Shown piece by piece: positions 1,942 to 4,765 of a stretch of 23,256 nucleotides of DNA; positions within the stretch are counted from its first letter, which is position 1; every line of letters begins with the position of its first letter. This DNA is from Corallococcus exercitus (lineage in GTDB: Bacteria; Myxococcota; Myxococcia; Myxococcales; Myxococcaceae). The notes beneath the pieces are model-generated. The model worked only from the letters and a program-made list of their open reading frames with translations, made no database searches and was not told the origin of the DNA. Made by a program: the position numbers and the translations under genes. The stretch is from the NCBI RefSeq assembly GCF_013116615.1, contig NZ_JABFJW010000124.1; one strand, 5' to 3'.

Positions 1942-3540
1942 CTACCCGTTGATGCGCACCATCGCGACGTCGTAGTGGCGGTCCGTCACGTAGCCGTTCG
2001 CGGCCTTGCCGGGGCGGTACATGTTCCCGGTCTTGTCATCCACGTAGAAGCGGTTGTTCGGGTTCGTGTCCTTGCCCTTGCTGGCGTTGGTCGTGCCCGG
2101 GTCGTGGAACGTGTAGTAGGTGCGGCCCTTCTCGTCGACGCCACGGCCCGTGATGGTCACGAAGTGGTCCGTGAGGCCGTCCACGTTGTAGTTCGAGTCC
2201 TTGTGGCTCACGCCCACGACCACCGGCTTGCCGGCGTTCAGCTGCTGGTCGATGTACTTGCGGCCCTCGGCGGCCTTCTTCGAGTCCACGTTGAGCGCGC
2301 CGACGCCGTTCTCGCTCTTGCCCACCTGGATGCGGCGGTCCGGGCCCAGCACGTTCGCGCCCTTCGCGCCCGCCATCGCCACCGCGGCCTTGAAGCACGC
2401 CGTGTCGCTGGGGGTGTAGCCGTGGCCGCCCTCGAACTGGCTGTAGTACGGCACCTTCACGTGCACCGCCGGGCCCGACTTGGACGGGGCCACCTGCTGC
2501 GTGTCCGTGCGGTCCGCCTCCGTGGTGGGCTTGGAGGTGTTCGTGCCGTTCGTGCGGCCCGGCTTCGAGTCGTTGTTCACGGACGGGGGAACCACGCCCG
2601 TGTTGGTGTTGGCCGGCTTCGTCGTGGTGCCCGACTGCTCCTTCTTGAGCATGGCGAGCGCGTCCTTCACCTCCGACTTGAAGCGGTTGGCCACGCCCTG
2701 CTGCACGTCCTTGGAGTTGCCGGAGAAGTGCACCAGGGTGCCGCTGGCGTTCGTGCGGCCGCGCTCGGCGTAGATGTCCTTGATGAGCTGCTCGTCGCTC
2801 ACCTTCGCGGGGTCGCGGCCGGCCAGCGCCTTCTTGAAGATGTCGTCCGCCCCACCCGGGCCGTGCTGCACGGAGGTGGACCAGGCCACGTCACGCAGCG
2901 CCGCGGAGCGCGTGTCCAGGTCGATGCCCGTCGCCTTCTTGATGTTGGCGGCGCCCGGGTCGTAGTGCGTGGCCTTGATGTAGTCGTGCTGAGCCTTGTC
3001 GAAGCCCTTCGGGTCCTTCGCCGCCAGGTCCTTCCACTTGGCGGAGAACTCCGCGGAGCCCGGCTTGCTGCCCGACAGCGCCTGGTAGTAGTCCGGGTTC
3101 GACTTCTTCAGCGAGTTGACGAACGACTGCGCGGAGCCGTTCGCGGACGCGAACTGGTAGGAGCCGTAGGACACGCCGCCCTTGTCGCCCTTGCCCGTGG
3201 ACACGGTGCCGGGGCCGCGCGCCTCGTACTTGCGGCTCAGCGAGCCCAGCTCTCCGCCCGCGCTGCTGGTGGTGCCGCCGTTGGTGGAGGGCGTCGTCTT
3301 CTGCGTGCCACCGGTGGACTGCGTGAAGCTGTCACCCGACGTCTTCGTCCCCGAGCCCGGCTTGTTCGTGCCCTTCGTCTCGAAGCCGTCCTTCTGCACC
3401 TTGAGCGTCTGGCCCGCGAGGATCTTGTTCGGATCCTTGATGTTGTTCGCCTTGGCCAGGTCGGAGACGGAGGTGTTGTAGCGCTTCGCGATCTCCGAAA
3501 GCGTGTCGCCAGAACGGACGCGGATGTTGGAGACGGACAT
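1942..3540 (-). CDS. Three-module cell-wall-active protein: N-terminal LysM, central lysozyme-like/GH46 chitosanase-like domain, C-terminal papain-fold C39-like cysteine peptidase domain; no signal peptide
   Basis: ATG at 3540, with an in-frame TGA 15 nt upstream, so no hidden leader. The N-terminus [48 protein letters not shown] is a LysM motif. A G/T/S-rich linker follows. The central region (…[15 protein letters not shown]… [20 protein letters not shown]… [15 protein letters not shown]) resembles GH46 chitosanases (compare …GDGRGYTGGIIGF… FQQAQNDERDRVYFDP… VMHGPGNDP). The C-terminus opens with PYYSQ…, has Cys in [11 protein letters not shown] and His in [10 protein letters not shown], matching the Peptidase_C39_2 (C39-like) pattern. 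Confidence 0.8.
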
Positions 3541-3730
3541 GGGAAGCCCCGGGTGTCAGGCCGCGAACACAGGCGCCGCGGACGTGCTTGGATCGCCGTG
3601 ATTATCGAAAGGCAATGCGATCAGTTTCGCATCCCCAGTCACAATCGTGTCAAACCAGTGATTCCAGCAACTTCAGTTTCAGCGGATCAATCCACTGAGA
3701 CTGGAGAGCCCGCCCAGGAGGCCCAATCGG

Positions 3731-4765
3731 ATGTCCAGGATCCAACCGGATTTCAAAAGTGTGGCATTGCTGTTTGCCATTTGCGTCACGGGCGCGGTCC
3801 CGGACGCCTCGGCCCAGGGGTCCGAGGGACTCACGGGGGTCTACTCGAACAAGCAGGGGCGGCTGGCCATCGTCGAGGGGAGCAACGAGACGCTCGTGCA
3901 CTTCTCGGGGTCGTTCCCGCAGGGCAGCAGCGCGGGCACCTGCGACTGCGCGTGGGTCGTCCAGAAGAAGACCGCCACGGCCTGGACGTTGAGCCAGGAG
4001 GACGAGCCGCACCCCTGGACGCTGCGCGTCAACCCCAAGCAGTTCGTGCTGGAGTCCGGCCCGTCGCCCCAGTGCTGCGGCGCGGGCTACCCGGGCAAGG
4101 ACACGTTCGCCCGGAGCACGTCCAAGCCGCTGGGCATCTGCAAGGTGAAGGCGTCCAAGGCGAGCTTCCACGCGTCGGACGCCGCCAACACCGCGCGCAA
4201 GGCGTTCGTGGTGTCGGGCGACGCGGTGGAGGCGTACGTCGACCCGCTGGAGCCGGACTTCCTCGCCGCGCGCTTCCAGGGGCCGCAGAAGGCCACGGCG
4301 GGGCTGCTCAAGCGTGAGGACCTGGACTGCTCGGCGGACTCAGGCCCCACTGCGTCCAAGGCCCCGGTGGCCGCGGACAAGCTCCAGCCCTTCGCGGGGA
4401 CGTGGGTGGAACTGACGAAGCAGGGCAAGGGCTTCGTCGTCCTCAAGCCCTGCTCCGCCGCGACGCGCAGCTTCACCGTCAAGCCCGCGACGGGCGAGGT
4501 GGAGGTGCAGCTTGGCCAGGAGGCCACGACGCTGAAGGTGACGTCCGTGGAGCCCGGCAAGGGCGCCGGGGCGTGGGTGCTGGGGCTCACGGCTTCCGAC
4601 GGCAAGCCGGAGCCGCTCCAGTGGAAGACGGCCGACGCCGCGAAGGGCACCGTGACCGTGACGAGCCCGGACCTCTTCTCCCAGAGCCACGACTACGTGC
4701 GCCAGGAGAAGAAGGCCGGGTTCCCGTCCAAGCAGGAGACGGGGTGCGACGAGTACGAGCGCTGA
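3731..4765 (+). CDS. Secreted hypothetical protein (Sec signal peptide, Cys-containing, no recognised domain)
   Basis: ATG at 3731 with AGGAGG at 3716-3721. The N-terminus MSRIQPDFKSVALLFAICVTGAVPDASA|QG is a typical signal peptide with an AxA cleavage site. The mature protein has Cys pairs (CDCAW…, QCCGAG…) and high GC3 codon usage. It is transcribed divergently from the LysM/GH46/C39 gene and converges on the MVP gene. Confidence 0.7.
   Translation: MSRIQPDFKSVALLFAICVTGAVPDASAQGSEGLTGVYSNKQGRLAIVEGSNETLVHFSGSFPQGSSAGTCDCAWVVQKKTATAWTLSQEDEPHPWTLRVNPKQFVLESGPSPQCCGAGYPGKDTFARSTSKPLGICKVKASKASFHASDAANTARKAFVVSGDAVEAYVDPLEPDFLAARFQGPQKATAGLLKREDLDCSADSGPTASKAPVAADKLQPFAGTWVELTKQGKGFVVLKPCSAATRSFTVKPATGEVEVQLGQEATTLKVTSVEPGKGAGAWVLGLTASDGKPEPLQWKTADAAKGTVTVTSPDLFSQSHDYVRQEKKAGFPSKQETGCDEYER

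Follow-up and report, generated by a model that had tools for sequence, protein, structure and literature searches.

What is the function of a divergently transcribed gene pair of Corallococcus exercitus, one of which encodes a putative cell-wall hydrolase without an export signal, the other a secreted protein without a recognizable domain? The pair is located in a stretch of 23,256 nt from contig NZ_JABFJW010000124.1 (assembly GCF_013116615.1), which is called the window here. The genes, designated LYT and the neighbour, are separated by a spacer of 190 bp; public annotation lists LYT as 'LysM peptidoglycan-binding domain-containing protein' and the neighbour as 'hypothetical'. Our computational analysis indicates that they probably form an antibacterial effector-immunity pair, with LYT as a bifunctional peptidoglycan-degrading effector and the neighbour as a bipartite periplasmic immunity protein. 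The GC content is about 70% across the window, and the proteins it encodes share 92-98% identity with those of Corallococcus. The GC contents at third codon positions of 0.98 for LYT and 0.96 for the neighbour demonstrate native codon usage. LYT shares 97% identity with a protein of Corallococcus caeni, and a total of 847 homologues was found.

The initial annotation, made from the sequence without database searches, had divided LYT into three modules. The first, a LysM domain, was borne out with 60.5 bits against a Pfam cut-off of 20.9. The second was described as a lysozyme-like domain that resembles GH46 chitosanases, with a fold also used by the C-terminal domain of Vibrio VgrG-3. The reference to VgrG-3 proved correct: PF21277 (T6SS_VgrG3-like_C) scored 182 bits against a cut-off of 27 and was covered from position 1 to 182 of 183, and the VgrG3 structures 4noo and 4nso were matched with E ~3e-28 by single sequence and 3e-47 with a profile. 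The link to GH46 proper is weak. The Pfam search with LYT gave no match to PF01374. A profile of the VgrG3C-terminal-like (VgrG3C-like) domain matched chitosanase 7c6c weakly (E 0.015) and in the central helices only, and a few homologues carried a precomputed PF01374 assignment. Residues E106, D119 and S124 of LYT align to the KYE...GD...S motif of VgrG3 and are also invariant in a broader alignment of the middle domain. This motif would hold the catalytic residues of VgrG3, presumably E827 and D842.

The third module had been called a papain-fold C39-like cysteine peptidase with an identifiable Cys/His pair. As judged from sequence comparison, the C-terminal domain of LYT is C39-like at the level of fold and homology. 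Residues 359-502 and beyond matched PDB 9jdd_A/9jg8_C, a 'Peptidase C39-like domain-containing protein', with E 4e-19 in phmmer, and in the alignment the Cys and His of 9jdd_A correspond to C382 and H459. The best solved relative is the toxin domain of BtaeB, an effector of the Bacteroides fragilis type VI secretion system (T6SS). Assignment to the Pfam family failed, because PF13529 (Peptidase_C39_2) had no match in LYT at E<=1 and only BtrH_N appeared below threshold (E 0.17). Homologues gave matches to Peptidase_C39_2 or BtrH_N below threshold, with 15-20 bits against a cut-off of 24 for PF13529, and four had a precomputed PF13529 assignment. C382 is the sole cysteine of LYT. Along with E106, D119, S124, H459 and D480 it was invariant in nine out of nine full-length homologues, i.e. 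neither enzymatic domain lacks the Glu/Asp or Cys/His residues on which the initial annotation had staked its case.

LYT has neither a Sec nor a Tat signal, as had been noted. The N-terminus is not hydrophobic and the LysM fold starts from about residue 5 with no signal peptide ahead of it. The in-frame TGA reported 15 nt 5' of the ATG was found there and is kept in the Corallococcus orthologues. Homologues of LYT begin alike with the LysM domain at the extreme N-terminus.

The neighbour, on the other hand, does carry a signal peptide. It had been characterized as a Sec-secreted, Cys-containing protein with no recognizable domain, and each of these points was substantiated. The hydrophobic core of the signal spans residues 10-24 with a Kyte-Doolittle maximum of 2.1 and precedes an A-S-A/Q site at residues 26-29; N-terminal hydrophobic segments were present in all neighbour homologues. 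The mature protein contains eight cysteines. Searches of Pfam, NCBIfam, PADLOC, PHROG and PDB sequences gave no match. An AlphaFold2 model built from 15 homologues, with a predicted local distance difference test score of 80, was all-β and had three parts, a barrel at residues ~33-130, an SH3-like domain at ~131-204 and a second barrel at 213-340. The first two are termed N-module and the last C-module in the following. Invariant Cys motifs of the N-module barrel are CxC at 71/73 and CC at 115/116. When the complete model was compared with PDB structures by Foldseek, Tp0751 was the only significant match at domain level. An internal duplication as the origin of the two barrels was suggested by weak cross-matches of hidden Markov models (HMMs); it was rejected by a negative profile-profile comparison (hhalign probability 2%).

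Table 1. Coordinates of the features of the LYT locus in the window. ORF, open reading frame; AF2, AlphaFold2; RBS, ribosome-binding site; aa, amino acids.
Feature	Coordinates	Strand	Basis or remark
LYT gene, 532-aa leaderless three-domain lytic protein	1942..3540	(-)	ORF, ATG start; stop codon 1942-1944
C39-like domain, papain-fold cysteine peptidase/amidase, residues 359-532	1945..2466	(-)	PDB 9jdd_A, E 4e-19
Predicted triad of the C39-like domain	Cys382 2395-2397, His459 2164-2166, Asp480 2101-2103	(-)	alignment, invariance
Linker 2, low-complexity Thr/Pro/Asn-rich, poorly conserved, residues 291-358	2467..2670	(-)	sequence
VgrG3-C-terminal-like (VgrG3C-like) lysozyme/chitosanase-fold glycan hydrolase domain, residues 98-290	2671..3249	(-)	PF21277, E 1.5e-53
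Predicted catalytic residues of the VgrG3C-like domain	Glu106 3223-3225, Asp119 3184-3186, Ser124 3169-3171	(-)	alignment, invariance
Linker 1, low-complexity Gly/Thr/Ser/Lys-rich, residues 49-97	3250..3396	(-)	sequence
LysM peptidoglycan/chitin-binding domain, residues 7-48	3397..3522	(-)	PF01476, E 1.4e-16
Divergent intergenic region, 190 bp, promoters and RBS of both genes	3541..3730		sequence, Corallococcus comparison
Neighbour gene, 344-aa Sec-exported protein, proposed bipartite immunity protein	3731..4765	(+)	ORF, ATG start; stop codon 4763-4765
Signal peptide, residues 1-28, predicted cleavage after A-S-A	3731..3814	(+)	hydrophobic core
N-module, Cys-rich β-barrel (~33-130) and SH3-like β-domain (~131-204)	3815..4342	(+)	AF2 model; stand-alone copies
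C-module, lipocalin-like 8-9-stranded β-barrel, residues 205-344	4343..4762	(+)	proposed inhibitor of the C39-like domain

The initial annotation had speculated that the neighbour might be an immunity protein and had named synteny in relatives as a test. We compared 33 loci from one genome per species, in which the neighbour was sought by tblastn and HMM. At 17 of the 18 loci with a three-domain homologue of LYT a divergent neighbour adjoined it. The paired loci came from five genera, i.e. Corallococcus, Myxococcus (sp. RHSTA-1-4), Pyxidicoccus, Cystobacter and Archangium, plus a metagenomic contig. The flanking genes for a PheH-like protein and a homologue of the major vault protein (MVP) are kept within Corallococcus only, and elsewhere the pair persists with different flanks. 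The pairing of LYT and the neighbour is real, conserved and well beyond chance expectation, and the immunity role of the neighbour has strong support.

The pair may be lost as a whole. Corallococcus sp. RDP092CA (locus L031, ~7889..8192) has a deletion of ~2.5 kb corresponding to ~2139..4637 of the window, by which the 5' parts of both genes are gone; what is left are C-terminal stubs of LYT and the neighbour, with the PheH-like and MVP-like genes on either side intact. In comparisons within Corallococcus, the LYT domains and the neighbour had 3-6 times as much non-synonymous divergence as their flanks. The fastest change in the neighbour was in its N-terminal part, and in LYT linker 1 diverged fastest with 44-89% identity. 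The ratios of non-synonymous to synonymous divergence are unreliable here, because extreme codon bias depresses the synonymous term.

Next to the pairing, the distribution of the single modules carries the argument. When 1.84 billion representative proteins were searched exhaustively by HMM, 154 relatives of the neighbour were obtained, counted as clusters at 50% identity. Most have ~200 aa and consist of the N-module only; they match the signal peptide, the first barrel and the SH3-like part, and all have an N-terminal hydrophobic segment and conserved cysteines. A smaller group of 130-210 aa matches the C-terminal barrel only. The gene of one stand-alone N-module (P0149) overlaps by 4 nt with the 3' end of the gene for a 668-aa PF21277 protein, another (P0151) lies 57 nt 3' of the gene for a 450-aa LysM-VgrG3C protein without a C39-like domain, and a third (P0139) is divergent from a leaderless LysM protein cut by the contig end. 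The stand-alone C-module P0166 is encoded divergently at a distance of 71 nt from a 242-aa leaderless protein with a C39-like domain only, which is 53% identical to LYT residues 359-531 (E 1e-81). All effector-side proteins inspected were without a signal peptide, while all partners had one. Based on these contexts of the stand-alone modules we concluded that the N-module corresponds to the VgrG3C-like domain, the C-module to the C39-like domain and the fused neighbour to the fused enzyme.

Some observations on the module families may be added. Locus L089 encodes a membrane-rich VgrG3C-like protein of 629 aa at 38..1927 (+), which is abutted by a convergent, barrel-only ORF of 118 aa with a signal peptide at 1930..2286 (-); the latter has a weak likeness (E 1.5e-4) to the first N-module barrel. 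Only two loci came from scanning metagenomes with the N-module alignment, since matches are confirmed with the first sequence. Relatives of unusual build are P0164 (2990 aa), P0214 (1087 aa) and P0154 (538 aa), among which two giants have 12-16 repeats matching part of the C-module and one protein has two tandem N-modules. As a universal rule, a matching module beside every VgrG3C-only or C39-like-only protein was considered and discarded, since exceptions were found.

A leaderless wall hydrolase with a periplasmic antidote is the signature of toxins that are injected into the periplasm of neighbouring cells, as is the case with the T6SS. We propose the following mechanism for the pair. LYT would be made in the cytoplasm without a signal and would be harmless there for want of a substrate. 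It would then leave the cell by a Sec-independent, probably contact-dependent route. In the periplasm of the target, or on an exposed wall, the LysM domain may tether it to peptidoglycan, where glycan strands would be cleaved by the VgrG3C-like domain and the peptide part by the BtaeB-like cysteine peptidase/amidase, with rounding and lysis as the consequence. The neighbour, exported by Sec and probably disulfide-bonded, would reside in the periplasm of the producer and protect kin, the N-module neutralizing the VgrG3C-like domain and the BtaiB-like barrel of the C-module the C39-like domain. We infer the two enzymatic activities as well as a physical inhibition by the neighbour.

The myxobacterial T6SS is the leading candidate for export, and we hold to it tentatively, with less than even confidence. 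Both catalytic domains of LYT have T6SS-delivered relatives. In addition, the T6SS of Myxococcus xanthus is functional and its sole validated effector, TsxE, is likewise a LysM protein, under whose action target cells become rounded. In the same study, additional effector-immunity pairs without linkage to vgrG are expected (PMC5801462). The route is proposed by analogy, because there is no T6SS gene in the window and no marker domain in LYT.

Several findings weigh against the proposal as a whole. No T6SS, vgrG, hcp, PAAR or adaptor gene was found in the 23-kb window, and LYT contains neither a T6SS marker domain (MIX, FIX, PAAR, Rhs) nor a VgrG spike. Among the 18 three-domain loci the neighbour was missing at L016, which holds a paralogue of lower identity. 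The link of the N-module to the VgrG3C-like domain comprises two clear stand-alone cases and a weak one (L089), and several modules are orphans. Neither module was found near the LysM-X-C39-like proteins of the M. xanthus type, near the LysM-VgrG3C protein of Myxococcaceae GXIMD 01537 or near the acidobacterial LysM-VgrG3C proteins in housekeeping contexts.

The wider family shows shuffling of domains. LysM-VgrG3C-C39-like proteins occur throughout Myxococcaceae and Archangiaceae. The VgrG3C-like domain was also found recombined with CHAP (P0057) or peptidase M23 (P0113), or with a true PF13529 domain ahead of it (P0051). LysM-VgrG3C proteins without a further domain are represented by many soil-metagenome proteins of ~295 aa, one of which (P0094) is labelled Pyrinomonadaceae, Acidobacteriota. 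One such gene, encoding a leaderless Pyrinomonadaceae-type protein of 292 aa (L035, 8001..8879), directly follows alanine racemase in a housekeeping neighbourhood with ribosomal proteins, dnaB, radA, thyA and folA, and no immunity-like gene was nearby. The C39-like domain occurs alone or behind other N-termini as well. In the M. xanthus type (L034 8001..9623; L019-L023, L029; P0071 and relatives) leaderless proteins combine LysM and C39-like domains, and in place of the VgrG3C-like domain they have a middle domain that is unrelated to it and matched neither Pfam nor PDB sequences. These genes are flanked by those for a phosphate-selective porin (Porin_O_P) and an ATP-grasp protein, with no neighbour homologue nearby.

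In Actinomycetota, versions of the C39-like (L024, 7725..8537) and VgrG3C-like (P0086) domains follow a helical N-terminal region with a W-x-G motif. A weak Pfam WXG100 match (E 0.018, L024 only) hints at delivery of the type VII secretion system kind; ESX genes were not seen nearby. In viral contigs of IMG/VR the VgrG3C-like domain was detected at 69 loci (L048-L116), either inside proteins of 900-1600 aa or as stand-alone ORFs of ~210 aa, and two copies occur in some viral contigs of 260-314 kb. Matches of the domain among the PHROGs are 34863 and 26249, each listed as 'unknown function'. Its frequency in viral contigs fits a general role as a peptidoglycan hydrolase.

Which other explanations would account for the pair? 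The one that survives best retains the logic of effector and immunity protein and differs in the way out of the cell. LYT might be cargo of a Kil/Tad-like machine or of the type III secretion system-like T3SS*, or be released by lysis of a subpopulation, and would mainly serve predation with the LysM domain targeting prey walls. The window without T6SS genes or marker domains would agree with this, as would the leaderless LysM-headed relatives that are widespread in Myxococcaceae. Reviews describe Tad-like and T3SS-like machines as part of contact killing by M. xanthus and report that genes of LysM proteins are induced on prey (PMC10433427, PMC9548883, PMC10849154). On the other hand, we saw no kil or T3SS* genes linked to the pair, both catalytic domains have relatives delivered by T6SS, and with TsxE a LysM effector is carried by the T6SS of M. 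xanthus. For a release by lysis there is no obvious need for a periplasmic immunity protein in a diderm producer. We rate this explanation as rather unlikely.

A bolder form of this idea is that LYT and many LysM-headed, marker-less relatives in Myxococcaceae are the wall-degrading toxins of the Kil/Tad-like or T3SS* predation machinery and not T6SS cargo. We know of no lytic cargo of these machines and rate this as improbable. If it were true, the bipartite neighbour would explain the sparing of siblings, and a new effector class with its export signal would be at hand.

A role of LYT as an endogenous autolysin or wall remodeller, e.g. in developmental lysis or spore formation, with the neighbour as a periplasmic regulator or inhibitor, agrees poorly with what was observed: signal peptides are lacking throughout, both genes evolve quickly and can be lost in nature, and domains are swapped like cassettes. 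A housekeeping hydrolase of the periplasm would need a Sec or Tat signal, and none was present in any homologue inspected. The pair is dispensable, having been lost in one strain, and the exchange of modules with CHAP, M23, C39_2 and WXG-like N-termini resembles that of toxin cassettes. These points prevail over the housekeeping neighbourhoods of the acidobacterial LysM-VgrG3C relatives beside alanine racemase, the PBP4-type DD-peptidase also encoded in the window and the strongly conserved intergenic region, which suggests tight regulation. We regard an autolysin as very unlikely.

Leaderless endolysins with a wall-binding and two catalytic domains raise the question of a prophage remnant or a domesticated phage lysin. 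Endolysins do without signal peptides, and the VgrG3C-like domain is found in the 69 viral contigs and matches two PHROGs. Yet there is no phage gene, holin or integrase in the window, codon usage is native, and the pair keeps its place on the chromosome from one Corallococcus to the next. In the viral contigs of IMG/VR the C39-like domain did not turn up, and the partner of LYT is a β-protein exported by Sec and neither a holin nor a spanin. We regard a phage origin as extremely improbable; the endolysin reading was ruled out by genomic context and native codon usage. Finally, an enzyme that stays in the cytoplasm to recycle or digest muropeptides or chitin-like oligomers taken up by the cell, beside a functionally unrelated neighbour, would fit the missing signal peptide and the existence of cytoplasmic LysM proteins such as E. 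coli Kbp (among the weak PDB matches), but is hardly credible because it leaves unexplained the conserved pairing with a periplasmic protein across genera, to which the correspondence of modules and domains and the secreted toxins as closest relatives are to be added.

The region between the two genes shows no variation among six Corallococcus species over long blocks such as GAAACTGAAGTT, GGAATCACTGGTTT, CGATAAT and TGTTCGCGGCCTGAC. No sigma-70-like promoter consensus was found in it, so that control may lie with an alternative sigma factor or an unidentified regulator. Other genes of the window encode, among others, the PBP4-type DD-peptidase, a prolyl oligopeptidase, an alanine-racemase-like protein and a cNMP-binding protein, and PADLOC gave no match to a defence system. 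The MVP-like protein (4810..7095, (-); 761 aa) is homologous to the major vault protein of eukaryotes and contains Vault repeats as well as an MVP shoulder domain; it is 93-98% conserved across the Corallococcus loci and fragmented in L007 and L008. The PheH-like protein (190..1836, (+); 548 aa) is a homologue of biopterin-dependent aromatic amino-acid hydroxylases with a C-terminal extension of ~250 aa that has no significant Pfam match.

Taken together, we favor the view that LYT and the neighbour are an effector and its immunity protein. Systems of this kind, in which a periplasmic immunity protein counters a wall-degrading effector, are well known. New is the combination, behind a LysM anchor, of two toxin domains known separately from Vibrio and Bacteroides, and the parallel fusion of two antidote modules that can be traced to separate single-module pairs. 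Also new is the N-module as a sizeable, unannotated candidate family of immunity proteins against VgrG3-type hydrolases. If this view is correct, the locus displays the modular evolution of toxin-antidote systems, in which toxin cassettes and antidotes were fused in parallel, and the secreted proteins of ~200 aa that make up most of the 154 clusters become candidate inhibitors of VgrG3-type wall hydrolases. It would also add a candidate to the short list of myxobacterial weapons for kin discrimination or predation, of which only TsxE/TsxI is T6SS-validated in M. xanthus. A practical yield would be a lysin with dual activity together with a specific protein inhibitor for each activity.

How does the pair compare with known systems? 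Aeromonas dhakensis TseP and Acinetobacter baumannii Tse4 are bifunctional T6SS peptidoglycan hydrolases, where a single effector attacks both glycan and peptide. The same dual attack is proposed for LYT; the catalytic folds differ. TseP and Tse4 have single immunity proteins, and these are not known to be fusions of two modules each found alone beside a single-domain effector. TseP is mentioned in PMC8668125. The pair TsxE-TsxI of M. xanthus (MXAN_5572/5571) is likewise myxobacterial and consists of a LysM-containing, presumably wall-targeting effector with a cognate immunity protein (PMC5801462). However, TsxE has a single catalytic domain of the amidohydrolase_2 type and is encoded downstream of the orphan vgrG2, whereas the two catalytic domains of LYT are unrelated and its gene is not linked to a vgrG.

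VgrG3 of Vibrio cholerae with TsiV3/TsaB (4noo, 4nso) is also a peptidoglycan-targeting toxin that is met by a periplasmic immunity protein (PMC12663445). Its C-terminal domain is homologous to the middle domain of LYT (PF21277), with the Glu...Asp...Ser motif kept, while the N-module family is distinct from TsiV3. The C39-like domain with the C-module is akin to BtaeB (Bfe7)-BtaiB of B. fragilis (9jdd, 9jg8; Li et al. 2025, Cell Host Microbe 33:1901, via PMC13402684), entitled 'type VI secretion system effector-immunity complex BtaeB CTD-BtaiB' in the PDB, where CTD denotes the C-terminal domain. BtaeB differs from LYT as a 617-aa adaptor-dependent T6SSiii effector with another N-terminal region; the toxin domains are homologous. 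BtaiB is a single domain of 125 aa, while the corresponding barrel of the neighbour is fused behind a second module. Although no sequence similarity of the neighbour to BtaiB was detectable, the C-module shares the BtaiB fold and, like BtaiB, is encoded beside a toxin of the BtaeB-CTD type.

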